Below, piece after piece: positions 5,367-53,987 of a stretch of 64,000 nucleotides of DNA. The translations under genes and the position numbers were made by a program. The DNA comes from a virus (lineage: Duplodnaviria; Caudoviricetes): positions 13,877-77,876 of the IMG/VR virus record IMGVR_UViG_2974704529_000001. The stretch is one strand, 5' to 3'. Under the pieces are notes generated by a model. That model was not told the DNA's origin. It did not search any database and saw nothing but the letters and a program-made list of their open reading frames with translations. Every line of letters begins with the position of its first letter. The stretch's first letter is position 1.

Positions 5367-7146
5367 TGGTGGTGCGGGTCTAGACGACCCCAAGTATGTA
5401 ATTCAGAACACGGTCAAGGCGCTCGCGCAGCGGACGCAGGCCAATGTTGAGGCTGAGCACCGGGCGGCAATTGAGGACGCGGGCAATCCGCTGTCTCCGG
5501 CTATGACGTTTTTCTTTAACACGATCATGGGCGGCTTTCAGACGCTAAGCAATTTTCTTGAGCAGATCATTCAGGCCATCACTGGCGCTGCTAATGGCAC
5601 GCTAGCCACGCTTTCGAGCTTCGTTACGGGCGTCGTGACCGACGTTGGTAATGCGCTGGGCTGGCTGGCTGATCTGGTGGACGATCTGTGGAACAACGCG
5701 GCGTCGGTGATCGGGTCTATCCCGCAGACGCTTGTGTCGGGCCTACAGAGCGCGCTTAACGGCATTAACAACACGATCCAGGCGGTTATCGAAGGCATCA
5801 TTGGCGCTATTCGGGGTATCCCGTTGGTGGGTGCTGGGATTGCTGATCTGGTGTCGATCCTTACGGGTTACCGGGAGGGTGTTGAGACTGATCAGGTTGT
5901 TCAGCAGAACCTAACGATTTCGTCTACGAGTTCGGTGCAGCGGCAGCCCGCTTGGGCGTCGTCTTATCCGATTTCGGCGGTGACGTATCCGGCGATCCTG
6001 CATTCGGATTTCACGGTCTATGCGGAGACGGTGGGGCCTGCTACGGCGGGTACTGCGCACTCGCATGAGATTCGTGGGTCGACTGATGATGCTTACGCTA
6101 TTGCGCCGTTTTGGGCGTGTGAGCAGAACGGCAGCTTGGGCGGGTTTGTTACTGCGTCTGAGGATACGGTGTTCTCCAAGTTTGGCCTGGTGATCTTCGC
6201 GGACACGACTCCGGTTCCTGCTGGGACGGTCTATTTCGAGGTCTACCGCGAGCAGCCGGGCGGCAGTTTGGAACGGCTGACGCAGACGGATATCTCGGCG
6301 AACATCACCAATACGAGCAAGCTTCTGGTATTGCAGTGGACGGACTTCCGGATCGTTGCGCGCCGGGGCGAGCGGTACCTACTGCGGATTAAGAACACGT
6401 CGAGTCCTAACGTCGTGCCGCGTTTGCGTGGCCTTGCGTGGGGCACTGGTGTTCCGGAGATTCAGTGGGAGACGACGACCGCTGCCAACACGAACAAGAC
6501 GACCTACACGGCGGCGGAAGCGGCTGCGGTTATCTCCACGTCAGGTATTACGCCGTGGCTGATGCTGGCGGCTGAGGAAACCGATATCCCTGAGGCGCGG
6601 ACGTGGGCAGACGACTTTAACCGCCCTGAGCTGGGCTACTTGTGGAACCACAGCAAGACGGATAACGGCGATCTGGTCATTGCGGCTAACAAGCTGACGT
6701 ACGGCGGGACCACTAACGGTTTCCAGCAGGCTTTGTATATCCATCCGTTGGCTACGGACAAGTTCAAGCTAACGGCTGAGGTTTCAAACCTTGGCGGTAC
6801 CGGCCAGGTGTATTTCATGTGCGCTGGTGGCCGCAATAACAATGTGTCGGCGGTGCTGGCTATTGGCACGACTGGTGTGTCTATTCAGACCTTGATCGGC
6901 ACGACGGTGACGGTGCGAGCGCAGGTGCTCAGGGTTAATAACGCGGGTCGGTACACGTTTACGTATGACCCGGCGTCTAAGACGTACAACGTTCTGCTTA
7001 ACGATCAGCCTATCGGGCTGTCATGGACCGACAGTGGCAACTTGCTAGATAAGGGTGTCCAGTTCCGGTATTTCCAGATTCAGATTCAGCGCGTTAGTGG
7101 CGTTAATGGGGGGCAGGTGGACAATTGGGTGATTCAGGACAACTAA
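5350..7146 (+). CDS. Minor tail protein
   Basis: Amphipathic helical N-terminus, C-terminal beta-rich WADDFNR domain, synteny. Confidence 0.8.
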   Translation: MAGLPSGGAGLDDPKYVIQNTVKALAQRTQANVEAEHRAAIEDAGNPLSPAMTFFFNTIMGGFQTLSNFLEQIIQAITGAANGTLATLSSFVTGVVTDVGNALGWLADLVDDLWNNAASVIGSIPQTLVSGLQSALNGINNTIQAVIEGIIGAIRGIPLVGAGIADLVSILTGYREGVETDQVVQQNLTISSTSSVQRQPAWASSYPISAVTYPAILHSDFTVYAETVGPATAGTAHSHEIRGSTDDAYAIAPFWACEQNGSLGGFVTASEDTVFSKFGLVIFADTTPVPAGTVYFEVYREQPGGSLERLTQTDISANITNTSKLLVLQWTDFRIVARRGERYLLRIKNTSSPNVVPRLRGLAWGTGVPEIQWETTTAANTNKTTYTAAEAAAVISTSGITPWLMLAAEETDIPEARTWADDFNRPELGYLWNHSKTDNGDLVIAANKLTYGGTTNGFQQALYIHPLATDKFKLTAEVSNLGGTGQVYFMCAGGRNNNVSAVLAIGTTGVSIQTLIGTTVTVRAQVLRVNNAGRYTFTYDPASKTYNVLLNDQPIGLSWTDSGNLLDKGVQFRYFQIQIQRVSGVNGGQVDNWVIQDN

Positions 7147-26719: not shown

Positions 26720-28150
26720 ATGACGACGTTTTTGCAGAGCCTTACCGGCCAGCTCAACACGACCCGCACGGAGAACGGCGATAAGGCGCATAAGTCGTCG
26801 CTTGATCCGGTGGTCGATTACTTCGGTTTGGCGGGCGCTATGCGTGACCGCGCCGAGGCGAGCGCTGATCTGTTTGAGAAGGCGTTCCGCGTTGACCCGC
26901 AGGCTGCCGTGCGGACCCTGTTCTATCTGCGCGATGTGCGCGGGGGCCAGGGGGAGCGTGACGTGTTCCGCGCGGGCCTCAAGCGCCTGTTTGCCGTCGA
27001 CCCGTACACGGCGATGGCTGTTGTTGAGCACGTCCCGTTCTATGGGCGCTGGGATGACTTGTTCATCTTCGGGTCTCAGGTTCCGGCGGGTATCTCAGCG
27101 ATCATTCGGAACCAGTGGTCCGACGACGTTGACGCTTACGAGCGCGGCGAGAAGGTCTCGCTACTGGCTAAGTGGCTGCCGTCCGACAAGAGCCGGTCGA
27201 ACTTGGAGCTGGCTATCGCGGTCCGCGAAATGCTGGGTCTGACTCAGCGGGAGTACCGCCAGACGCTTAGCGCGCTTCGGGGTCGTATCGACCTGCTCGA
27301 GCACGCCATGTCGGAGGGCGTGTACGCGAACGTCGACTACGGCAAGATTCCGGCGCAGGCGCACCGTAAGCACGTTAAGGCGTTCCGGCGCAACGACGGC
27401 GAGCGGTACCAGGCGTTCCTAGACGCGGTTGACCGTGGCGAGGCCAAGGTGAACACGTCGACCCTGTATCCGTACGAGCTGTACGACATGGTTAAGGGTG
27501 GGGACGCGGCTGCCGCTAACACGCTGTGGAACAACCTGCCGGACTACACGCGCCCCGGCCAGGACGCGATCGTTCTAGCGGACGTTTCAGGCTCGATGTG
27601 GGGTCGGCCTATGTCGGTGTCTGTGTCGCTGGCTTTGTACTTCGCAGAGCGCAACACAGGGCCGTATAAGGGCTACTTCATGACGTTCGCCTCTACGCCT
27701 GAGCTGGTGCAGGTAACCGGTAAGACGTTGGAGCAGAAGCTTCACGCTATCGAGCACTCGACTGGCTGGTGTGGGTCGACCGACTTGGAAGCGGCGTTTA
27801 AGGCGATCCTGCGCGCCGGTAAGCAGTCGGGCACCGTCCCGGCGACGCTCTACGTCGTGTCGGACATGCAGTTCAATCAGGCGCTTAACCACGCTGATCT
27901 GAGCGTGTTTGAGTCGGCCCGGCTGGACTTCCAGCGGGCGGGGCTTGAGCTGCCGCATGTCGTGTTCTGGAACGTCAATGCGCGCCACGATCAGCTTCCG
28001 GCCACGATCCTTGACGGGAACGTGACGCTGGTGTCTGGCCTGGCGGCTACGACGTTCGGCATGGCTGTGGAGGGTAAGACCCCTCGTGAGCTGGTAAATG
28101 ACGTGATCAACAGCGAGCGGTACTCGCAGATCAACGTTTACGGTTCCTAA
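26720..28150 (+). CDS. Ro60-like RNA-binding protein (DUF2828/TROVE-like plus vWA domain)
   Basis: TENG...SSLDPVVDYF, RDVRGGQGER, YGRWDDL, AKWLP; MIDAS-like DVSGSM; SDMQF; FWNV. Confidence 0.85.
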   Translation: MTTFLQSLTGQLNTTRTENGDKAHKSSLDPVVDYFGLAGAMRDRAEASADLFEKAFRVDPQAAVRTLFYLRDVRGGQGERDVFRAGLKRLFAVDPYTAMAVVEHVPFYGRWDDLFIFGSQVPAGISAIIRNQWSDDVDAYERGEKVSLLAKWLPSDKSRSNLELAIAVREMLGLTQREYRQTLSALRGRIDLLEHAMSEGVYANVDYGKIPAQAHRKHVKAFRRNDGERYQAFLDAVDRGEAKVNTSTLYPYELYDMVKGGDAAAANTLWNNLPDYTRPGQDAIVLADVSGSMWGRPMSVSVSLALYFAERNTGPYKGYFMTFASTPELVQVTGKTLEQKLHAIEHSTGWCGSTDLEAAFKAILRAGKQSGTVPATLYVVSDMQFNQALNHADLSVFESARLDFQRAGLELPHVVFWNVNARHDQLPATILDGNVTLVSGLAATTFGMAVEGKTPRELVNDVINSERYSQINVYGS

Positions 28151-28157
28151 TGTTTCC

Positions 28158-28186
28158 GATACCGGGTGCCGCCCGGTATCTTTAAT
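28158..28186 (+). terminator. Hairpin after the Ro-like gene
   Basis: GATACCGGG pairs with CCCGGTATC, followed by TTT. Confidence 0.5.
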
Positions 28187-28190
28187 CTTG

Positions 28191-28242
28191 TGGACGCTAA
28201 CAGCAACTAAAACTGTTTGCGGATAACAAAGAAATGCGTCCA
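28191..28242 (+). ncRNA. Y-RNA-like element 1
   Basis: TGGACGC/GCGTCCA stem; TAACAGCAA after the 5' strand; inner TGTT/AACA hairpin. Confidence 0.7.
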
Positions 28243-28253
28243 GTTAAAACGTG

Positions 28254-28375
28254 TGGACTCCTACAGCAATTACAACGCTTCCACTGTTAATGGCGAGGTC
28301 TGGGTTCGAGTCCCAGTAGCGGCCCCGTGTCGCTGTAGCTTAAGGGCAGAGCGCGTATGCAAAAAACGGAGTCCA
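28254..28375 (+). ncRNA. Y-RNA-like element 2 (YrlA-like) enclosing a circularly permuted tRNA-Asn(GTT) fold
   Basis: TGGACTCC/GGAGTCCA stem and ACAGCAA, then anticodon arm, T arm (GGTTCGAGTCC), closed acceptor stem and D arm, in that order. Confidence 0.8.
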
Positions 28376-28386
28376 GTAAGCGGTTG

Positions 28387-28447
28387 TGGTCACTAACAGC
28401 AATCCTATGAAATCAATTTAACTGAAACTGATAATCAAATGTGACCA
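28387..28447 (+). ncRNA. Y-RNA-like element 3
   Basis: TGGTCAC/GTGACCA stem; TAACAGCAA; A/T-rich loop. Confidence 0.7.
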
Positions 28448-28465
28448 GTCTTGCCGCGCCAGATT

Positions 28466-28506
28466 AGCCCCGTATCCAGTCCTAGCCGACTGGCCGGGGC
28501 TTTTTT
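28466..28506 (+). terminator. Intrinsic terminator after the Y-like RNA array
   Basis: AGCCCCG...CCAGTC/GACTGG...CGGGGCT followed by a T run. Confidence 0.8.
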
Positions 28507-28651
28507 GTGCCCTAAGAAAGGATTTACATGCCTGGACCAATGTCCGCGCCCAACGGAAACGCGCTGATCACCTACAGCGCCGAGGCGCGCAAGAAAGCCG
28601 GTCGGACCGGCAAGACGGAGCTTGTGAAAGCCCGTAAGGGGGATAAGAAGA

Positions 28652-35927: not shown

Positions 35928-36785
35928 GTGACCGTTCACCTAAAGGTCTACGCCGAGAAGCTCGGCACTATTAACGCGGCTGCGGAGGTGTTCAAGTTTC
36001 CCGGCGGGGAGCTGCACCTTAGGAGCATTCTCCCGCCGCTGATTGATGGGACGTGGATTGCGGACGTGCGGGGCGCTGCTACCGACGACCTGGTAACCGC
36101 GCTGCTGCTGGCTGACCACGCGGCGCAACTGGGCCAGCCGTTCGTGTTGTTCCTGCCGTACCTTCCGGCTGCTCGCGCGGACCGGGGGACTCCGTTCGGC
36201 CTGCGGGTGTACGCGGACATGATCAACAACTGCGCGTATGCGGAGCACGTCATGGTCATTGACCCGCATTCGCCGGTCGCTAACCGGCTGGTTAGGAACA
36301 TCTGTCCGCTTGAGCCTCTGCCGCTGCTGGACCGGGCGCTAGAGAGTCAGGGCCATTGGCGTTACGACGCGATCATTGCGCCAGATAAAGGCGCGGTGGA
36401 TCGGGCCGGGGCAATCGCTAAGCACTACGGGCTGGACCTGGTTGTGTGCGATAAGGAACGCGATTTCGAGACGGGCCGGATTACCAAGTACAAGGTGCCA
36501 GTTCTGTCCACCAAAGGTAAGTACCTGGTGGTCGATGACATCTGCGACGGCGGCGGCACCTTCGCGCTCTTGGCTAGCGAGGCGCTTATCTCTAAGTCCA
36601 ACTTGGACCTTTGGGTTACGCACGGCATTTTCTCCGGAGCTGCTACCAACCTCCGGAATTACTACGGGCGCATCATGACGACCGACTCTCACCCTGGGCA
36701 TAACCGGGTGGGTGTGGCTACGTCGATTGTGCCGACTTTTACATACATGCACCAGGCGATGGTTGAGCTTAAGGGGATAGGGTGA
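35928..36785 (+). CDS. PRPP-synthetase-like protein (Adps-like, NARP1)
   Basis: FPGGE, LPYLPAARADR, DPHS, APDKGA and VVDDICDGGGTF motifs. Confidence 0.85.
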   Translation: MTVHLKVYAEKLGTINAAAEVFKFPGGELHLRSILPPLIDGTWIADVRGAATDDLVTALLLADHAAQLGQPFVLFLPYLPAARADRGTPFGLRVYADMINNCAYAEHVMVIDPHSPVANRLVRNICPLEPLPLLDRALESQGHWRYDAIIAPDKGAVDRAGAIAKHYGLDLVVCDKERDFETGRITKYKVPVLSTKGKYLVVDDICDGGGTFALLASEALISKSNLDLWVTHGIFSGAATNLRNYYGRIMTTDSHPGHNRVGVATSIVPTFTYMHQAMVELKGIG

Positions 36786-38266
36786 GCACGAAGTTTGCGC
36801 CGGTCGCGGCGCTATTCGAGACGGACGCATACAAGCTGGGCCACGTCGACCAGTACGCGCTTAGCGGCGACGTGACGCGGGTGTATTCCAACTACACCAA
36901 CCGTAAGTCGCGGCTGCCGGGCGTCGATAAGGTCGTGCATTTCGGCTTGCAGGCATATATCACTAAGCACCTGATGGAGGCTTTCGAGCCGTTCTTCGCG
37001 GCTAAGGAGAATGAGGTTGCCGCGCTTTACGAGGAGCGGGTAGCCCAGATTCTCGGGCCGGATGCGGCCCACTCGATTGGGTCGGACCACATTCGCCAGT
37101 TGCACGGCCTTGGGTTCCTGCCACTGCGGTTCAGTGCGGTGCCTGAGGGGACGCTAGTGCCTATCGGGGTGCCGTCGTTCACAGTGGAGAACACTCACGA
37201 GTCGTTCTACTGGCTGACCAACTACATCGAGACCGGCCTGAGCGCTGGGGTGTGGCAGGCCAGCACGAGCGCGACTATCGCCAAGCAGTACCGGCGGGTG
37301 CTTGAGGCCGCGGCCTTGCGGACCGGTGCGGACCTGGCGGGCGTCGACTGGCAGTGCCATGACTTCTCATACCGGGGCATGTCGTCGCATGAGAGCGCGG
37401 CGGCGTCGGGCGCAGCCCACCTGCTGAGCTTCACCGGTACGGACTCGCTGGTGTCGCTGGACTGGATCGACCGTTACTACGGCGGCGATTACGTGGCCGG
37501 GTCGGTCCCGGCTACCGAGCACTCGGTTATGTGCACCGGCATCGAGACTGTCGGGGAGCTTGAGACGTTCAAGCGGCTGCTGGACCTGTACCCGTCCGGC
37601 ATCGTTAGCGTCGTTAGCGACACGTTCGATCTATTTAGAGTGCTCAACACGTACCTGCCGACGTTGCATAAGCAGATCGTGGGCCGGGACGGGAAGCTGG
37701 TTATCCGGCCTGACTCCGGCGATCCGGAGAAGATCATTTGCGGCGATCCGGACGCGCCCGCTTTCTCTAACGAGTGGATGGGTGTGCTCGGGCTGCTCTA
37801 CGAGCACTTCGGCGGCAAGAAAAACGCTGCGGGGTTCATTGAGCTTGATCCGCACGTCGGTGTGATCTACGGCGACTCAATCACGGTTGAGCGTGCGACG
37901 AGCATTACCGCGCGCATGGAGAAGCTGGGTTACGCGTCGTCCAACGTCGTGTTTGGCGTGGGTAGCTTCACGTACCAGTACAACACGCGTGACACGTTCG
38001 GGTCCGCGATGAAAGCGACGTGGGCTGAGGTCGACGGCAAGGGTTACAACCTGCTCAAGAATCCGGTGACCGACGACGGGACTAAGAAGTCCGCTACGGG
38101 CCGGTTGGCTGTGTTGGAGAACATCTGGGGCGATCTGGCGCTCAAGCAGAACGCCACGATTGAGGACGAGAAGTCGAGCTTGCTCCGTCCCGTCTGGGAG
38201 AACGGAAAGTTTCTAGGCCGGCAATCGTTTGCGCAGGTCAGAGGCGTTTTAGCGCGTCAGCGGTAG
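36782..38266 (+). CDS. Nicotinamide phosphoribosyltransferase-like protein (Namat-like, NARP1)
   Basis: TDAYKLGH, HDFSYRG, ATEHS, VSDTFD, RPDSGDP and GVGSFTYQ motifs. Confidence 0.9.
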   Translation: MSTKFAPVAALFETDAYKLGHVDQYALSGDVTRVYSNYTNRKSRLPGVDKVVHFGLQAYITKHLMEAFEPFFAAKENEVAALYEERVAQILGPDAAHSIGSDHIRQLHGLGFLPLRFSAVPEGTLVPIGVPSFTVENTHESFYWLTNYIETGLSAGVWQASTSATIAKQYRRVLEAAALRTGADLAGVDWQCHDFSYRGMSSHESAAASGAAHLLSFTGTDSLVSLDWIDRYYGGDYVAGSVPATEHSVMCTGIETVGELETFKRLLDLYPSGIVSVVSDTFDLFRVLNTYLPTLHKQIVGRDGKLVIRPDSGDPEKIICGDPDAPAFSNEWMGVLGLLYEHFGGKKNAAGFIELDPHVGVIYGDSITVERATSITARMEKLGYASSNVVFGVGSFTYQYNTRDTFGSAMKATWAEVDGKGYNLLKNPVTDDGTKKSATGRLAVLENIWGDLALKQNATIEDEKSSLLRPVWENGKFLGRQSFAQVRGVLARQR

Positions 38267-38352: not shown

Positions 38353-39279
38353 ATGACGACCTTATGGGCGATGCGGGGTTATCCCGGCTCTGGTAAATCG
38401 ACCAGGGCGCGTGAAATCGCTGACGAGACCGGCGCGGTTGTCGTTTGTCGTGACGACTTGCGCATGATGCTGCACGGCACGTATTTCTCGGGCAAGAAAG
38501 AGCTTGAGGAGGAGGTTACGGTTGCGGAGCGGGCGCAGGTTAGCGCGTTCCTTAAGGCCGGTATCTCCGTCGTTGTCGACGCCACGCATTTGGAGCCGTC
38601 TTACCTGCGTAAGTGGGCGAAGATGGCGAGCATGTACGGCGCAGAGTTCAAGCGCGTCGATATCGAGACTCCCGCTAGCTACTGCATCGTCGCTGACTTT
38701 AAGCGCGGCGAGGCCGGGGACCGGACTGTCGGCGCGGAGGTGATTAACCGGATGGCTAAGCGTCACCCGATTAAGAACTGGCCGAATATCCAGGCTCCTC
38801 CGACGTTCGACCCTAAGCCGGTCGAATGGATTGAGGGTCTGCGGGAGGCCATCATCGTGGATATCGACGGCACGGTGGCCCACATGACGGGCCGGTCACC
38901 CTACGACTACACGCAGGTCCATACCGACGTGGTTGACGAGAACGTGCGCTGGCTGGTCAACGTGATTGACCAGTTTGGCATCACCAACGATGTATCGGTG
39001 CTGTTCGTATCGGGCCGGGACGACTCTTGCCGTAACGAGACGGTTCGTTGGTTGTACGACAACGGCATTCCGTTCGATGAGCTGCACATGCGGCCTACCG
39101 GCGCTAAGGATGAGCACGGTAACAAGCTGCCGGATTACCTGGTCAAGTACGACCTGTTCGACCAGAACATTCGCGGTAAGTACAACGTGCGGTTTGTGTT
39201 GGACGACCGGGACCAGGTTGTGAACTTGTGGCGCTCGCTGGGCCTTAAGTGCCTGCAAGTTCAGCCGGGAGACTTCTAA
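38353..39279 (+). CDS. pnk: Polynucleotide 5'-kinase/3'-phosphatase (T4 PseT-like)
   Basis: GYPGSGKST P-loop; DIDGT HAD motif; DDRDQV. Confidence 0.92.
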   Translation: MTTLWAMRGYPGSGKSTRAREIADETGAVVVCRDDLRMMLHGTYFSGKKELEEEVTVAERAQVSAFLKAGISVVVDATHLEPSYLRKWAKMASMYGAEFKRVDIETPASYCIVADFKRGEAGDRTVGAEVINRMAKRHPIKNWPNIQAPPTFDPKPVEWIEGLREAIIVDIDGTVAHMTGRSPYDYTQVHTDVVDENVRWLVNVIDQFGITNDVSVLFVSGRDDSCRNETVRWLYDNGIPFDELHMRPTGAKDEHGNKLPDYLVKYDLFDQNIRGKYNVRFVLDDRDQVVNLWRSLGLKCLQVQPGDF

Positions 39280-42884: not shown

Positions 42885-44165
42885 GTGAGCTTTGACGCTC
42901 CGGAGAACGCTAACTACGCGGCGACAATCGTTAAGCTGCCGCAGGGCGTCCTCCTAGACGGCCTGGACAACTTGGTCGGCGTGCCCATGTTCGGGTACCA
43001 GGCGCTCACTCAGAAAGAGGGCTACGAGCTGGGCGCGCTGCGGGTGCTGTTCATGGCTGAGACTCAGCTAGACACTGAGTATGCGCGGCAGAGCAACCTG
43101 TTCCGTGAGGCCACGCTGAACCGGGACGCGAGCGCGACCGGCTACCTAGAGCCGAATGCCCGCGTTAAGGCGCTGCGGCTGCGTAAGCACCAGTCGGACG
43201 CGCTGCTGATGCCGGTGTCGTCGCTGGCCTATACCGGCTACGACGTGTCGACGCTCAAGCCGGGGGACACGTTCGACAAGCTGAACGGTCACACGATCTG
43301 CCGGAAGTACGTCCCGAAGGGTAAGAAGCAGGCCACTCAGGGCCAGCCCAAGGTTCGTAAGCAGGTTGATGAGCGGCTGTTCCCGAAGCACCTGGACACG
43401 GAACATCTGTTCCGGAACCTGCATTACTTCCGTGACGCTAAGCGCCTGGTGGTGACGCAGAAGTTGCACGGCACGAGCTGGCGCGGCGGCAATGTCCCGG
43501 TCAACCGGACTAAGGGTCGGTTTGAGCGGTTCCTGAACCGGCTGGGTGTTGTCACTCCTGACACGGAGTACAAGCACGTCTACGGCTCTCGGAACGTGGT
43601 TAAGGGCCGGTCGGAGAACAACCACTACTACAAGACCGATTTGTGGTCGAAGTTCGGCGCGAAGCTTGACGGCAAGATTCCGGAGAACTTCATCATTTAC
43701 GGCGAGCTGGTCGGGTGGGTTAGCGAGGATGAGCCGATCCAGAGGGGTTACACCTACGACCTGCCGCCGGGTGAGTGCGAGCTTTACGTGTACCGGGTAG
43801 CGACGGTGAACCCTAAGGGTGTTATCGCTGACCTGTCATGGGAAGGCGTTAAGGACTTCTGCCGGACGTTGGAACTTAAGACGGTGCCAGAGTTCGGGTA
43901 CGACACTGAGCATCTTCCGAATCAGGAGTCGGAGGAGTTGTTCATTGAGGATTACCAGGAAACCTATCTAGATCGGCGCTACGCGGACGATTACCCGACC
44001 GGTGGGTATCTGCCGCTGAGTGACCGTAAGACGGTTGACGAGGGTGTCTGCGTCCGTATCGAGGGCCAGATTCCCCACGTCTTTAAGGCTAAGTCTCCGA
44101 AGTTCCTTGAGCACGAGACTAAGCAGTTGGATAAGGGAGAGGTTGACCTTGAGTCGGTGGCTTAA
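42885..44165 (+). CDS. RNA ligase (Rnl2/DRB0094-like)
   Basis: Nucleotidyltransferase motifs KLHGT, YGELVG, DEGVCVR and FKAKS. Confidence 0.88.
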   Translation: MSFDAPENANYAATIVKLPQGVLLDGLDNLVGVPMFGYQALTQKEGYELGALRVLFMAETQLDTEYARQSNLFREATLNRDASATGYLEPNARVKALRLRKHQSDALLMPVSSLAYTGYDVSTLKPGDTFDKLNGHTICRKYVPKGKKQATQGQPKVRKQVDERLFPKHLDTEHLFRNLHYFRDAKRLVVTQKLHGTSWRGGNVPVNRTKGRFERFLNRLGVVTPDTEYKHVYGSRNVVKGRSENNHYYKTDLWSKFGAKLDGKIPENFIIYGELVGWVSEDEPIQRGYTYDLPPGECELYVYRVATVNPKGVIADLSWEGVKDFCRTLELKTVPEFGYDTEHLPNQESEELFIEDYQETYLDRRYADDYPTGGYLPLSDRKTVDEGVCVRIEGQIPHVFKAKSPKFLEHETKQLDKGEVDLESVA

Positions 44166-50151: not shown

Positions 50152-50224
50152 GCCACCTTAGCTCAGTTGGTAGAGCGGTTCCTTCGTAACGAACAGGTCA
50201 GCGGTTCGATTCCGCTAGGTGGCT
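50152..50224 (+). tRNA. tRNA-Thr(CGT)
   Basis: Cloverleaf paired manually; loop TTCGTAA. Confidence 0.9.
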
Positions 50225-50255
50225 CGTGAGTATATAACTAAATAGAGGAGATATT

Positions 50256-50408
50256 ATGGCTTTGATTTCTGATCCGGTTGAGGTTGACCCGATTCAGGTT
50301 GGCCGGGATGCGCTCGGTTGGGTGCAGGAACTTCGGGACCGTAAGGCGTGGCCTAAGGCTGAGATTCCGGAGCAGGCTAAGAAGCCCGCTAAGGTCGGGA
50401 ATAGCTAG
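50256..50408 (+). CDS. 50-aa hypothetical protein
   Basis: GAGGAG RBS; manual translation MALISDPVEVDP... Confidence 0.65.
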   Translation: MALISDPVEVDPIQVGRDALGWVQELRDRKAWPKAEIPEQAKKPAKVGNS

Positions 50409-50428
50409 TTAGTCCCCTTCGGGGGTTT

Positions 50429-50502
50429 CTGCTTGTAGCTCAGCTTGGTAGAGCGCCCGCTTTGGGAGCGGGAAGTCGCAGGTTCAAATCCTGCTTGGCA
50501 GA
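50429..50502 (+). tRNA. tRNA-Pro(TGG)
   Basis: Cloverleaf; loop TTTGGGA. Confidence 0.9.
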
Positions 50503-50530
50503 CGTTAGGGATTACCCCGCCTCACGGCGT

Positions 50531-50631
50531 GTGGCCCCTCGGTTAGTCCACCGACTGAACGGCTTGGTCTAGTAGGTGTGAGCCTGCCAGCGTTGCAGAT
50601 CGTATAACTGTCGGCCCGGTGCAGGGGGCAC
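50531..50631 (+). ncRNA. Structured RNA candidate between tRNAs
   Basis: GTGGCCCCT/AGGGGGCAC closing stem with internal hairpins. Confidence 0.35.
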
Positions 50632-50688
50632 TGATCGTAAGCAAATATGCGCCGCTCTTGGTCCAGGGTGTTAGGCAAAAGGCCGTAT

Positions 50689-50764
50689 AGCTCGGTAGCT
50701 CAATTGGTAGAGCAGCGGTCTCCAAAGCCGCCGGTTCGGGGTTCGAGTCCCTGTCGGGTTGCCA
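50689..50764 (+). tRNA. tRNA-Trp(CCA)
   Basis: Cloverleaf; loop CTCCAAA; encoded CCA end. Confidence 0.9.
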
Positions 50765-50794
50765 ATGCAGTACAGGCCATGTACTATATGTGTC

Positions 50795-51103
50795 ATGAGA
50801 TACGCAGAGGTCGAGTACCGCATAGCTGACCTTTACCGGCTGCATCGCTACGATGCGTTCGCCAATCCCGATAAGGTTGGCCTTGGCAGGTGTGGTTGCG
50901 GTGAGGATATGTACTACTCGGGGCATGATCTGCATTTCGGTCGTGCGGTGGCGGCTGCGCTCAAGCTGGGCGACGAATGCCGGGCTTGTAAGGCTGAGAT
51001 TTACTACCACGACGACGTTAGGCAGTGGTTCCATCGCGCCGATGTTGGCGACCGGCCTACGTGCCGGTTTGGGGATGGCCCAGTGACGGAGCTGGTCGAA
51101 TGA
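50795..51103 (+). CDS. Cys/His-rich hypothetical protein
   Basis: CGCG...H; CRAC...C pattern. Confidence 0.55.
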   Translation: MRYAEVEYRIADLYRLHRYDAFANPDKVGLGRCGCGEDMYYSGHDLHFGRAVAAALKLGDECRACKAEIYYHDDVRQWFHRADVGDRPTCRFGDGPVTELVE

Positions 51104-51348
51104 CCGACAAGCCGCACGCCTTCATCCCAAAGGGCACGCTTCCCGCTCCCGCGTCATGCAACGTCTGCGGACGGTCAGCGTTCCACAGCATTCACGACGC
51201 AACGCCTGTCGAGAGGCTTCAACGTATCGAGCGGATCGCGTCGGCGGCGTCCTGGCAGGAACGTGCATCGAATCCGACTGACTTCGCCCGATTCTGTAAC
51301 GAGATTCTGTGTGCGGTCGATATAGACAGCTTGGACGGCTTAACGTAG
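51100..51348 (+). CDS. Hypothetical protein
   Basis: SCNVCGRS..HSIH; overlap coupling. Confidence 0.55.
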   Translation: MTDKPHAFIPKGTLPAPASCNVCGRSAFHSIHDATPVERLQRIERIASAASWQERASNPTDFARFCNEILCAVDIDSLDGLT

Positions 51349-51361
51349 CCACAGATTTACC

Positions 51362-51435
51362 GGCCCTCTAGCCCAATTGGCAGAGGCAATAGGCTTAGAC
51401 CCTATCCAGTGCGAGTTCGAGTCTCGCGGGGGCCA
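51362..51435 (+). tRNA. tRNA-Leu(TAG), short variable loop
   Basis: Cloverleaf; loop CTTAGAC. Confidence 0.88.
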
Positions 51436-51509
51436 CGCGAGGTAGCTTAAGGAGCAAAGCCCCCGACTGTGACTCGGGTGATTCGGGTGCAAGTCCCGGC
51501 CTGTCGCCA
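51436..51509 (+). tRNA. tRNA-His(GTG)
   Basis: Loop CTGTGAC; acceptor stem has two mismatches; atypical T loop TGCAAGT. Confidence 0.75.
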
Positions 51510-51510
51510 A

Positions 51511-51585
51511 TGACCGCTAGCACAATTAGGCAGTTGCGCCGGAATCTGACTCCGGAGGTTCCAGGTTCGATTCCTGGGTGGTCAG
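51511..51585 (+). tRNA. tRNA-Gln(CTG)
   Basis: Cloverleaf; loop ATCTGAC. Confidence 0.85.
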
Positions 51586-51742
51586 CGTGAATAGGGGGAA
51601 TGATGTTCAGTAAGAATGCGTGCAATCAGTCGTTCGGCTGGATTTAGAGGACACGAGGAGCGGGCATCACGATTGGGGTTGGTGTTGGTTGCGGTGATGC
51701 ACGTCGTTAGCAGGTTGGGCGCTGTCCTCGATATAGCCCACT

Positions 51743-51816
51743 GTGCTAGTAACCCATGTTGGCTGGGTGCCACTCTTCCAAAGTGGATTTCGCGGGTTCG
51801 ATTCCTGTCTAGCACA
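51743..51816 (+). tRNA. tRNA-Gly(TCC)
   Basis: Cloverleaf; loop CTTCCAA. Confidence 0.88.
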
Positions 51817-51851
51817 CACCCACCCTGTTCTCTCGTTAGGCAGGGTCTTTT

Positions 51852-51927
51852 GCCTCGTTAGCTCAGTTGGTAGAGCTGCCGACTCTTAATCGGTAGGTCA
51901 CAGGTTCAAGTCCTGTACGGGGTACCA
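51852..51927 (+). tRNA. tRNA-Lys(CTT)
   Basis: Cloverleaf; loop CTCTTAA; CCA end. Confidence 0.92.
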
Positions 51928-51928
51928 C

Positions 51929-52016
51929 GGAGAGTAAAGCAGCGGGGAGTCCCGCGACCAGCCTTGAAAGCTGGGAAGCCGTAATGGAGCTTGGGGATCA
52001 AGACCTCTGCTCTCCA
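51929..52016 (+). tRNA. tRNA-Ser(TGA)-like, non-canonical D and T loops
   Basis: GGAGAGT/GCTCTCC acceptor; CCAGC-CTTGAAA-GCTGG; long variable arm; T loop ATCAAGA. Confidence 0.6.
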
Positions 52017-52058
52017 CTTTGAGAAACGTACTCATGCTGACTTACTTGGGGGTGGTCT

Positions 52059-52748
52059 GTGTCTAAGGTGCTTAGCCTTTACGGCACACGGTCATCTAAG
52101 TATTGGTCGGAAGCTCCGGCGAAGATGGACGCGCTGAATCTGCGTGCGATCTTCCCGTCGAGCAATCCGTTCGGTTTCCCTGATCTTGAGCGTTGCGATT
52201 GGGTGCCTGATTACCTGGGGGCGTGGCATCTGCCGCGTCAGCGGGAGCGCGCAGCTCGGGAGAACGGCGCAATTCACTTCTTTTTGGACGACTACCGTTT
52301 TGAGACGGCGTTTACGAGCCCTGAGAGGACGCTGGGGCGAGTTACGGCGGTCGGTGGTGCCCTGACACCCGATTTCAGTTTGTGGCGCGATATGCCGCGT
52401 GCAGCGCAGCTTTGGAACGTGTACCGGTCCCGCTGGTGTGGCGCGTACTGGCAGAGCCAGGGCGTGAACGTCGTTCCTACGGTCTGCTGGGCACGCCCTG
52501 ACACGTTCGACTTCTGCTTTGAGGGTCTGCCTCGGGGTGGGCCTGTGGCGGTGTCTGCGGTGGGTGTGCGGGCGAAGCCCGAGGATCAAGCGCTGTTCCG
52601 TGAGGGCCTGGCCGCGATGGTCGAGCGCCTTGAGCCGGCGATTTTGCTTAGCTACGGGCGGCTGGTGCATGTGGAGGGCTTAGACCTGCCACCTGTGCGG
52701 GAGTTTCCGACGTTCTGGGATGAGCGCCGTAAGGCTGTTAACGCTTAG
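52059..52748 (+). CDS. DUF4417-domain protein
   Basis: IHFFLDDYRFE, PDFSLWRDMP and GAYWQSQGVNVVPT motifs. Confidence 0.8.
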   Translation: MSKVLSLYGTRSSKYWSEAPAKMDALNLRAIFPSSNPFGFPDLERCDWVPDYLGAWHLPRQRERAARENGAIHFFLDDYRFETAFTSPERTLGRVTAVGGALTPDFSLWRDMPRAAQLWNVYRSRWCGAYWQSQGVNVVPTVCWARPDTFDFCFEGLPRGGPVAVSAVGVRAKPEDQALFREGLAAMVERLEPAILLSYGRLVHVEGLDLPPVREFPTFWDERRKAVNA

Positions 52749-52757
52749 GGGGTGCTC

Positions 52758-53111
52758 ATGGGCGGTCGTGGTGGTGGCGGTGGTGGCCCGGTTAGTTCCC
52801 GGTCGTCCACGGTGACGCTGTATCACAGGACTTCTGCGAGTGCGGCGCGTGACATTGTGGATCGTGGGTTTCAGCCGCAGTTCCGGCCTGGCATGGATAA
52901 GTCTTACCGTGATGAGAACTCGCAGTATGGGTTCTTTAGTAAGACGGTTAATGGCCAGGAGGGTTACGGCCAGAATGTTGTGGCCGTGGAGGTTCCGAAG
53001 TCTGCTGTTGAGCGTGATCCGTGGTCGGGTCATGTTCGGGTGCGGGTTGAGGAGCTTAGAAACGCAAACTTCCGGCACTATGAAGGTAAGCGCCGGAAGA
53101 AGCTATCTTAA
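52758..53111 (+). CDS. MGGRG-leader protein with an ADP-ribosyltransferase-like fold
   Basis: TLYHRT...ARDIVDRGF, YGFFS and YG..VVAVEV resemble ART strand motifs. Confidence 0.5.
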   Translation: MGGRGGGGGGPVSSRSSTVTLYHRTSASAARDIVDRGFQPQFRPGMDKSYRDENSQYGFFSKTVNGQEGYGQNVVAVEVPKSAVERDPWSGHVRVRVEELRNANFRHYEGKRRKKLS

Positions 53112-53116
53112 GTTGT

Positions 53117-53187
53117 GCCGTTGTGTCCGAGTGGTTAGGTGCCAGGCTGCAAACCTGGTTAGTCGCGTTCGATTCGCGGGGACGGCT
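53117..53187 (+). tRNA. tRNA-Cys(GCA)
   Basis: Cloverleaf; loop CTGCAAA. Confidence 0.88.
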
Positions 53188-53193
53188 CTTTTA

Positions 53194-53310
53194 GGCGACT
53201 GGCATTCCGAAGCGGAGCGCCGCTCTAGCCATACGCCGGTAACGGTCCTTAGCCTTTGGGCCAAGGTCGTTCCAGGTGGTGTGGCCGGGGATGGGTTCGC
53301 CCTTGTCGCC
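53194..53310 (+). ncRNA. Cloverleaf-like structured RNA with a very long central arm
   Basis: GGCGAC/GTCGCC closing stem, short 5' hairpin, ~65-nt irregular hairpin, GGG-TTCG-CCC hairpin. Confidence 0.45.
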
Positions 53311-53360
53311 GGTTGGCAGGCTGGCTAGGAATACCGCTTTGGCGGCTGCGTCCTGGTCCA

Positions 53361-53504
53361 TCAGTTGCCGTCATCCCAGTTGTTGGGCTTGATCACGCCT
53401 TTACGCATGAGCCAGCCCTTGAGCTTGAAGTAGACGCCTACGGGCCACAGGAGACGGCCCAGACCGGCCCAGCCGGGTTCGATGTCGTCGTGGTTGCTGC
53501 TCAT
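53361..53504 (-). CDS. 47-aa hypothetical protein
   Basis: Manual translation MSSNHDDIEPGW...; GGAGG RBS. Confidence 0.55.
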   Translation of the reverse strand: MSSNHDDIEPGWAGLGRLLWPVGVYFKLKGWLMRKGVIKPNNWDDGN

Positions 53505-53641
53505 TCTTCCTCCATCCATACATGGGCGTCAGGCATGATGCCCAACAGGTTGTTGACCAGACGGTCAGCCTTCTCGTGGTCTATGTCGCTAAGCACGATC
53601 CGGTCGTCGTCTATGGCGTCCTTCATCCAGACAGTCCACAT
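53501..53641 (-). CDS. 46-aa hypothetical protein
   Basis: Manual translation MWTVWMKD...; ATGA overlap. Confidence 0.5.
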   Translation of the reverse strand: MWTVWMKDAIDDDRIVLSDIDHEKADRLVNNLLGIMPDAHVWMEEE

Positions 53642-53645
53642 ACAT

Positions 53646-53718
53646 TCCTCCGTAGCTCAATTGGCAGAGCGCGCGACTGTTAATCGCGTGGTTGGTGGTT
53701 CGAGTCCACCCGTTGGAG
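53646..53718 (+). tRNA. tRNA-Asn(GTT)
   Basis: Cloverleaf; loop CTGTTAA. Confidence 0.88.
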
Positions 53719-53722
53719 CTTA

Positions 53723-53911
53723 TTAACGCTTAATCGTCACGGTGGCGGTAAGGCCGTGCTTCTCGATTTGGTGCTGTACCGCTTCGGCGGCTAGTTCACG
53801 TATGAACGTTTTAGCGGTGAGCGGTCCGACGAGGCTAAATTCCTCTATCCACTTGTCCAGGTCTGTTGTGCAGACGAGGGTGATGAGGAATTGACCTTTA
53901 GGTCGTTGCAT
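53723..53911 (-). CDS. Hypothetical protein
   Basis: MQRPKG start directly after tRNA-Lys(TTT). Confidence 0.5.
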   Translation of the reverse strand: MQRPKGQFLITLVCTTDLDKWIEEFSLVGPLTAKTFIRELAAEAVQHQIEKHGLTATVTIKR

Positions 53912-53914
53912 GGG

Positions 53915-53987
53915 TGCCCCCACAAGGGATCGAACCTTGGACCCGATGATTAAAAGTCACCTGCTCTGCCAACTGAGCTATAGGGGC
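53915..53987 (-). tRNA. tRNA-Lys(TTT), opposite strand to the other tRNAs
   Basis: GCCCCTATAGCTCAGTTGGCAGAGCAGGTGACTTTTAATCATC...GGTTCGATCCC. Confidence 0.92.

Follow-up and report, generated by a model that had tools for sequence, protein, structure and literature searches.

A DUF2828 Gene of Cluster L Mycobacteriophages and Its Array of ACAGCAA RNAs: A Candidate Ro60/Y-RNA-Like System of a Second Kind

Introduction

Ro60 and its Y RNAs form an RNA-surveillance system which has long been studied, is still poorly understood, and has a role in autoimmunity. Here, we ask whether a phage gene for a Ro60-like protein, together with an array of small repeated elements lying directly behind it, represents a system of a comparable kind. 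The locus is contained in a 64,000-nt stretch of DNA (hereafter the window), which corresponds to positions 13877-77876 of a 77,876-bp virus genome in IMG/VR (record IMGVR_UViG_2974704529_000001) and is part of a Cluster L mycobacteriophage with 94% identity to Archie and Faith1 (Lclasvirinae). The open reading frame (ORF) at 26720-28150 is annotated as "Ro-like RNA binding protein" in relatives, and the gap of 377-378 nt on its 3' side is unannotated in Archie and partly covered by a tRNA call in two relatives. The original prediction for this locus described three RNA units in the gap which share the motif ACAGCAA and differ in their interiors, and suggested that they might serve the protein as interchangeable adaptors against host defenses. 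On the evidence presented below, it is fairly likely that the locus specifies a Ro60/Y-RNA-like ribonucleoprotein of a second kind, in which a constant handle carries tRNA-like cargo and which is tied to RNA repair and counter-defense.

Results and Discussion

A Ro60-Like Protein outside the TROVE Family

The gene at 26720..28150 (plus strand) encodes a protein of 476 aa, which belongs to PHROG 850 and carries the Pfam domains DUF2828 and DUF7788/vWA. Its scores were 104.5 bits for DUF7788 (cut-off 27.1) and 99.8 bits for DUF2828 (cut-off 29), with additional weak vWA matches, and phrog_850 ("Ro-like RNA binding protein") was matched over the full length (E = 3.7e-167). No match to TROVE (PF05731) was found at E<=0.01 in the Pfam search, and a sequence search of the PDB yielded no matching chain, including no Ro60 chain at E<=10. 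Using AlphaFold2 with 44 homologues, we obtained a model with a predicted local distance difference test (pLDDT) of 83.4. When this model was compared with the PDB by Foldseek, ranks 1-13 were all Ro60 structures aligned over the full length (~500 aligned columns, probability 1.00, template modeling [TM] score up to 0.62), among them Ro60 of the Thermus phage phiLo (TM 0.56-0.62), Deinococcus Rsr, and the Xenopus and human Ro60 proteins. The residues of the MIDAS motif (metal ion-dependent adhesion site; DxSxS ... T ... D), namely D288, S290, S292, T354 and D382, are invariant in the 44 homologues. According to the model, the protein consists of an N-terminal alpha-helical HEAT-repeat ring and a C-terminal vWA domain with an intact MIDAS site. 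Because the top 13 fold matches are all Ro60 and TROVE is not matched, the modeled protein is Ro60-like by fold and belongs to a separate sequence family, in agreement with the earlier suggestion that it is of the DUF2828 type rather than a classical Rsr.

Homologues of this protein were detected in 707 of 50,697 phage records, including Felixounavirus phages and phages of Listeria, Staphylococcus, Enterococcus, Bacillus, Campylobacter, Vibrio and Aeromonas. The locus therefore belongs to a parallel system which is far commoner in phages than classical Ro60.

Three RNA Units with a Common Handle

Behind the gene follow a 10-bp hairpin, three RNA units and a terminator, in this order and all on the plus strand. 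Each unit is composed of TG, the 5' strand of a closing stem (7-8 bp), 1-2 nt, ACAGCAA, a variable part (the cargo), AAAT or AAAC, the 3' strand of the stem, and GT, and the spacing between units is 4-11 nt. Unit 1 (28191..28242, 52 nt) has the closing stem TGGACGC/GCGTCCA, the handle TA-ACAGCAA, and the cargo hairpin TGTT[TGCGGAT]AACA. Unit 2 (28254..28375, 122 nt) is closed by TGGACTCC/GGAGTCCA and has the handle T-ACAGCAA; its cargo is a permuted tRNA mimic made of an anticodon-like hairpin (loop CTGTTAA), a T arm, a capped acceptor-like hairpin and a D arm. CTGTTAA is also the anticodon loop found in the tRNA-Asn(GUU) that the phage itself encodes. Unit 3 (28387..28447, 61 nt) has the closing stem TGGTCAC/GTGACCA, the handle TA-ACAGCAA, and an AU-rich cargo. 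The sequence at 28191-28447 agrees exactly with the unit lengths, stems and motif layout that had been claimed. With respect to the two 7-nt hairpin loops that were also proposed, TGCGGAT of unit 1 is indeed a predicted hairpin loop, whereas ATTTAAC of unit 3 closes a stem of only 3 bp and is not part of the minimum-energy fold.

Three further structures accompany the units. A two-tier GC-rich stem followed by TTTTTT at 28466..28507 (-23.4 kcal/mol, z -4.47) is an intrinsic terminator, as expected from the claim that a strong terminator closes the array; terminators of differing sequence occupy the same place in relatives. Immediately after the stop codon, a GC-rich hairpin of 10 bp with a short T run (28158..28180, -17.3 kcal/mol, z -4.55) gives a terminator-like match, and hairpins of other sequence occupy this position in Samty, Krypton555 and DyoEdafos, which belong to other Cluster L subclusters. 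This hairpin may be a leaky terminator, a stabilizer or protector of the mRNA 3' end, or a processing barrier, and may determine how much mRNA there is relative to small RNAs. Finally, fold prediction places an outer helix GCGGU/GCCGC around unit 3 (28380..28457; 28380-28384 with 28453-28457), giving a two-tier stem; its GCGG...CCGC strands are identical in sequence and position in all Cluster L relatives read, which leaves no covariation to judge the structure by.

Conservation in Cluster L Relatives

We read 12 related loci whose proteins show from 97% down to ~60% identity, comprising seven named Cluster L phages (Zakai, Wyatt2, Samty, DyoEdafos, Krypton555, Baudelaire and DirkDirk, the last as its IMG/VR copy L012) and five IMG/VR relatives. 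The three-unit array between gene and terminator is kept in all 12. Compensatory change, which had been claimed from the different stems within one genome, is evident across these loci as two-sided changes in every closing stem: GGACGC/GCGTCC, GAGCGC/GCGCTC, GGACAC/GTGTCC and GGGCGC/GCGCCC in unit 1; ACTCC/GGAGT, ACCCC/GGGGT and ACTCA/TGAGT in unit 2; and GGTCAC/GTGACC, GGACGG/CCGTCC and GGACAC/GTGTCC in unit 3.

The cargo, on the other hand, is swapped among close relatives. The loop of unit 1 is TGCGGAT in the window, TGCATAC in Samty, ATGGTAA in Wyatt2 and CTTCTAA in Baudelaire, and several units have in common a stem TTTCA/TGAAA around differing anticodon-like triplets. A 50-nt hairpin unit takes the place of the tRNA-like unit 2 in Baudelaire and in two of the IMG/VR relatives. 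A consensus fold of ten long units of the unit 2 type contains 22 pairs, 13 of which show two-sided changes, and the T arm, capped acceptor-like stem and D arm follow one another in the order known from YrlA RNAs, with covariation in all three elements. These swaps and the consensus fold bear out the view that the units are a genuine RNA family whose handle is constant and whose cargo, a tRNA mimic included, can be exchanged.

Some annotations in deposited genomes overlap the units. Part of unit 2 has been called tRNA-Thr or tRNA-Asn in some of them (Zakai L001 4534-4604; Gardann), in all likelihood because the tRNA-mimic cargo was mistaken for a tRNA gene. Small "hypothetical protein" ORFs are annotated across units in Samty (gp55, L003 3083-3277), Baudelaire (gp61, L006 3267-3410) and the Staphylococcus phage S-CoN_Ph5 (CDS0152 and CDS0151, L010 4019-4366), and are probably spurious gene calls.

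Cluster L phages are a convenient model for such RNAs: their host is M. smegmatis, cargo has been swapped naturally among their many sequenced relatives, and gene, hairpin, three RNAs and terminator make up a clean operon.

Linkage of the Handle to DUF2828 Genes

The first four other phages opened, Escherichia coli phage VpaE1, Listeria phage LP-048, Bacillus phage MrDarsey and Staphylococcus phage S-CoN_Ph5, all carry exact ACAGCAA units with covarying closing stems beside the DUF2828 gene and on its strand. Twenty short units were used to build R1, a covariance model of the handle; they include units 1 and 3 of the window, which as training sequences score 59.6 and 58.7 bits, respectively. 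In 80 IMG/VR loci with a DUF2828 gene (851 kb; threshold E<=0.01), R1 gave 128 matches in 56 loci, all on the strand of the gene. Seventy-five of these matches lie at most 500 nt from the gene, a zone that makes up 10.8% of the flank space, and none lies inside the gene. A further 77 matches, again without exception on the gene's strand, were found in 80 loci from bacterial and archaeal assemblies (630 kb), and 14 in five complete phage genomes (550 kb), where all fall within ~2.7 kb of the gene. In the whole 77.9-kb record of the window phage, units 1 and 3 alone were matched.

A count that uses no model gave a similar picture. In 77 IMG/VR loci (the close relatives L011-L013 were left out), there are 288 copies of ACAGCAA on the gene's strand and 50 on the opposite strand, whereas composition-matched heptamers, except for the overlapping CAGCAAA, occur 44-111 times on the gene's strand. 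A closing stem is present for 74% of the same-strand copies as against 30% of the opposite-strand copies. The position of the units varies by lineage: they may be upstream of the gene, downstream of it or scattered among tRNAs, and in most other phages the DUF2828 gene itself is located inside or at the head of a tRNA island.

Within the 64-kb window, ACAGCAA is found at chance level (seven copies vs. 6.9 expected), and three of the seven copies fall within 203 nt on one strand of the intergenic gap behind the Ro-like gene. The copy at 6650, which has a TGTGG-like prefix, was rejected as a unit: it lies inside a 598-aa ORF, no closing stem was seen and R1 does not match it. The remaining sites were likewise not accepted as further units, the frequency of the motif being that expected by chance.

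The Handle Follows the Protein and the Cargo Is Shared

To compare DUF2828 with TROVE loci, we surveyed 151 Mycobacteriales genomes, 11 of which have a TROVE gene. At these 11 loci, R1 found no match even at E<=1, and ACAGCAA is nearly absent; the proposed search with a covariance model near both kinds of genes thus finds the handle beside DUF2828 and not beside TROVE. Around eight of the 11 TROVE genes, Rfam models detected YrlA-like RNAs (36-44 bits). The interior of these RNAs contains an anticodon-like hairpin, a T arm, a capped hairpin and a D arm, a close likeness to the interior of unit 2, and it is the closing region alone that differs. Since the same cargo is placed on different handles according to the protein family, the handle follows the protein and the cargo is shared between systems. 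We infer that the ACAGCAA handle is the putative binding site of the DUF2828 protein, and the tracking of the protein family by the handle is the strongest indirect argument for it.

In line with this division, unit 2 scores 23.1 bits against Rfam YrlA (RF02553), below the cut-off of 69. CGAA does not occur in 28187-28451, so this region contains no Ro-binding motif of the CGAA type (GNCGAAN0-1G), and the adjoining gene is DUF2828 and not TROVE. Across 124 R1 matches, the cargo hairpins include 67 loops of 7 nt, compared with 9.0 +/- 2.7 in shuffled sequences, and 29 loops have the form Y-U-NNN-R-N typical of anticodon and T loops, compared with 0.5 expected.

One Mycobacteriales TROVE gene with a YrlA-like match is accompanied by another RNA (L173 2219-2327, minus strand), which scores 37.7 bits against the nematode family ceN72-3_ceN74-2 (cut-off 38) and may be a second Y RNA.

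RNA Repair and Counter-Defense

In 34 of the 80 bacterial DUF2828 loci (among L099-L167), the same strand carries a gene for RtcB within 4 kb, in most cases directly downstream of the DUF2828 gene. The handle RNAs of these loci are usually upstream of the DUF2828 gene, and the loci come mostly from rumen and gut Clostridia. Among the 77 IMG/VR viral loci, RtcB was found within 5 kb in one.

The counter-defense role that had been suggested for the system has support from published work on a homologue. The protein bas63_0130 of phage Bas63 is homologous to the window protein over the full length (34% identity across 475 aa, E = 4e-91). In a PhageMaP preprint, Bas63 gp130 was described as similar in structure to Ro60, encoded directly upstream of tRNAs, and able to counter the Ppl defense (PMC11482910). 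We found three handle RNAs downstream of gp130 (MZ501086, L185; 16069-16143, 16236-16301 and 16691-16766), all in unannotated spacers of the tRNA island. One of them overlaps a small ORF annotated on the minus strand. A relative of the window protein is already a validated and transferable anti-defense factor, and the candidate RNAs with their tRNA-like cargo make its mechanism directly testable. In addition, the Cluster L1 orthologue LeBron gp53 is toxic when overexpressed alone in M. smegmatis, and toxicity on overexpression was also reported for the LeBron orthologues of the Pnkp and RNA ligase genes described in the following section (PMC13148394).

Other Genes of the Window

The same early-gene arm that contains the Ro-like gene also encodes a Pnkp-type kinase-phosphatase (38353-39279) and an RNA ligase (42885-44165), both 10-15 kb away, which are the classic phage tRNA-repair pair. 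A tRNA island at 50152-53987, 22 kb from the Ro-like gene, comprises 11 tRNA genes including Lys(UUU), Lys(CUU), Asn(GUU) and Thr(CGU). An adjacent pair of genes at 35928-38266, coding for a phosphoribosyltransferase-domain protein (annotated as ribose-phosphate pyrophosphokinase in Archie) and a NAMPT-like protein, looks like an NAD-salvage pair. Such pairs are used by phages against NAD-depleting defenses.

A Proposed Mechanism and Its Alternatives

We propose that the protein gene would be transcribed together with the three small RNAs lying between the post-stop hairpin and the terminator, and that the RNAs would then be cut out of the common transcript. We consider such co-transcription and processing quite probable. 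The protein would bind each RNA by its constant handle, which is formed by the end helix, the single-stranded 5' ACAGCAA and the 3' A-rich stretch; we regard this binding as somewhat more probable still. The variable interior would display parts of tRNAs, in unit 2 a whole permuted mimic of the YrlA type and in the other units short hairpins that are often anticodon-like in relatives. Ro60-Y RNA particles and the rsr-yrlBA-rtcBA operon suggest, by analogy, that the RNAs may gate the ring or tether it to tRNA-recognizing enzymes, and the particle, together with the phage's own Pnkp and RNA ligase, might serve RNA repair or quality control as well as counter-defense during infection. For such a function in RNA repair or counter-defense, which is suggested by analogy, we consider the case to be evenly balanced.

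Several observations weigh against this explanation. A scan for promoters between the gene and the units found none, its single match, inside unit 3, being at chance level, and co-transcription is assumed. The folding of single units is ordinary (z from -0.85 to -1.2), so that the units cannot be claimed as structures on thermodynamic grounds and their support rests on the comparison with relatives. The 100% pairing of the training units of R1 is partly circular, as stems outside mycobacteriophages were chosen by requiring pairing, and we therefore relied on the R1 searches and the model-free count instead. In 24 of the 80 viral DUF2828 loci, R1 found no match within 5 kb. Pnkp and RNA ligase were rejected as general neighbors of DUF2828 genes, because they are present in one or two of the 77 viral loci and in none of the 80 loci from genome assemblies.

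Two further observations of this kind speak at the same time for an alternative, in which genuine RNAs are inherited along with the DUF2828 gene and yet are not bound by its protein: they would act as decoys or sponges made of tRNA parts, alone or with a host factor (an RRM protein, a La-type protein or a tRNA enzyme), and the protein would be a separate anti-defense factor. Bas63 gp130 counters Ppl by itself, both from a plasmid and after transfer into T7, in the absence of the phage RNAs (PMC11482910). This activity can therefore do without the RNAs, which weakens the idea of their being obligatory adaptors for it. In addition, the Class I RNAs of social amoebae, which look like the short units, are reported to bind the RRM protein CIBP/Rnp1A directly and not a Ro-like protein (PMC7919456), and a likeness of the cargo to anticodon loops and T loops would suit decoys as well. 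However, it is the protein family and not the cargo that the handle accompanies: cargo of the YrlA type has another closing stem beside TROVE. In bacterial and archaeal assemblies as well as in phages of several bacterial phyla, handle and gene stay tightly linked on one strand, which would be difficult to account for if the two had no direct functional connection. We regard this alternative as unlikely.

It is still less probable that the units are cis-acting parts of an mRNA or operon, such as 3'-UTR (untranslated region) stabilizers, processing punctuation or attenuators for the Ro-like or downstream genes, instead of free small RNAs. Their placement between stop codon and terminator, the lack of a promoter of their own in the scan, and the spacer-like arrangement between tRNAs in other phages could all be understood in this way. 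Cis elements, however, do not sit easily with units that may be upstream, downstream or among tRNAs depending on the lineage. A single-stranded heptamer which is invariant across phyla and a cargo that mimics tRNA fit a trans-acting RNA better, and the interior of unit 2 matches YrlA, which is a stable Ro60-associated RNA (Chen et al. 2014, PMC4201824). That the units are decayed or rearranged tRNA genes without a function of their own is highly improbable in spite of the tRNA-Thr and tRNA-Asn calls on unit 2 in some relatives and the location of DUF2828 genes within tRNA islands in most other phages, because ARAGORN calls no tRNA at the array in the window, units 1 and 3 have neither a T nor a D arm, the ACAGCAA handle is not a feature of tRNAs, and the two-sided changes which keep closing stems and arms paired indicate purifying selection and not decay.

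A ribonucleoprotein with a constant handle, as proposed above, might be part of a much larger picture. More tentatively, DUF2828 proteins and ACAGCAA RNAs could make up a second and very widespread Ro/Y-like particle, present in gut bacteria, in phages that infect Actinobacteria, Firmicutes and Proteobacteria, and perhaps, in the form of Class I RNAs, in eukaryotes. The handle would then be a universal adaptor, and the swappable cargo, made of mimics of anticodon loops and of whole tRNAs, would provide decoys or tethers for tRNA-directed nucleases and repair enzymes, amounting to a programmable counter to tRNA-targeting immunity. We would put this forward as a speculative extension and doubt that it holds in full.

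Comparison with Known Systems

The candidate RNA partners are missing from Rfam and from the literature searched. With permissive thresholds, no Rfam family reached its cut-off in the array, and in 13 other DUF2828 loci tRNAs alone did so. Searches of the literature on DUF2828, the ACAGCAA phage motif, Ro-like proteins and TROVE-RtcB found no description of ACAGCAA RNAs.

The closest known system is Ro60 (Rsr, TROVE plus vWA) with its Y RNAs. Ro60 binds Y RNA at the outside of its ring and misfolded RNA within the cavity. Like the locus of the window, it combines a ring-shaped HEAT and vWA protein with RNAs that are encoded beside the gene and closed by an end-to-end helix, and like the DUF2828 system it has a link to RtcB and RNA repair. 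YrlA also shares with unit 2 the T arm, capped acceptor-like hairpin and D arm in the same order. On the other hand, the window protein is DUF2828/DUF7788 and not TROVE, the handle is ACAGCAA and not of the CGAA type, and DUF2828 units also carry short anticodon-like hairpins. Chen et al. (2014) reported YrlA beside TROVE Ro60 in 254 bacteria and 22 phages (PMC4201824). Their search began from TROVE-annotated genomes (PMC4201824), and unit 2 would fail the YrlA model in a genome-wide search. The Ro60 of phage phiLo binds two Y-like RNAs of the CGAA type, Yrl1 and Yrl2 (PMC12135203; PDB 9KOP, 9L5Y). Neither of these two studies concerns DUF2828 or ACAGCAA.

The bacterial loci with RtcB recall the Salmonella operon rsr-yrlBA-rtcBA (PMC4201824, PMC7790460), as in both cases RNAs, a Ro-like gene and RtcB are arranged on one strand (34 of the 80 bacterial loci). 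They differ from it in the protein family and in the RNA handle, and the window phage is without RtcB and has Pnkp and RNA ligase 10-15 kb away.

Bas63 (Felixounavirus) resembles the window in that its homologous protein gp130 has handle RNAs just downstream. However, gp130 heads a tRNA island, whereas the window tRNAs are 22 kb from the gene, and the published anti-Ppl activity is that of gp130. In the Bas63 preprint, it was guessed that some annotated tRNAs could be Y RNAs; the ACAGCAA RNAs, which are located in unannotated spacers, were not described there (PMC11482910).

The closest sequence match of the short units comes from eukaryotes. Class I RNAs (Rfam RF01414) are ~60 nt long, are unique to Dictyostelia according to the authors, and have their own DUSE promoter (Kjellin et al. 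2021, PMC7919456). Against RF01414, the short units of the window score 20.8 and 14.4 bits and a unit of a Staphylococcus phage 22.4 bits, with a cut-off of 41.5. The consensus of this family consists of a 6-bp stem, CCUUACAGCAAU, and then the closing stem and CUG. Like units 1 and 3, Class I RNAs have a length of 42-65 nt, a covarying end helix of ~6 bp, a variable interior and a CUG(U)-like tail, and the 11-nt motif that adjoins their 5' strand ends in ACAGCAA, with U3, C6, C9, A10 and A11 conserved. The motifs GCUAACAGCAA and ACUAACAGCAA of units 1 and 3 (52 and 61 nt, with 7-bp helices) fit all five of these positions, and unit 2 fits the motif with a one-base deletion. The phage locus differs from the dictyostelid genes, which have a DUSE promoter ~60 nt upstream, in that its units follow a protein gene at spacings of 4-11 nt. 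For the Class I RNAs of social amoebae, which are still unexplained, the shared handle offers a concrete starting point.

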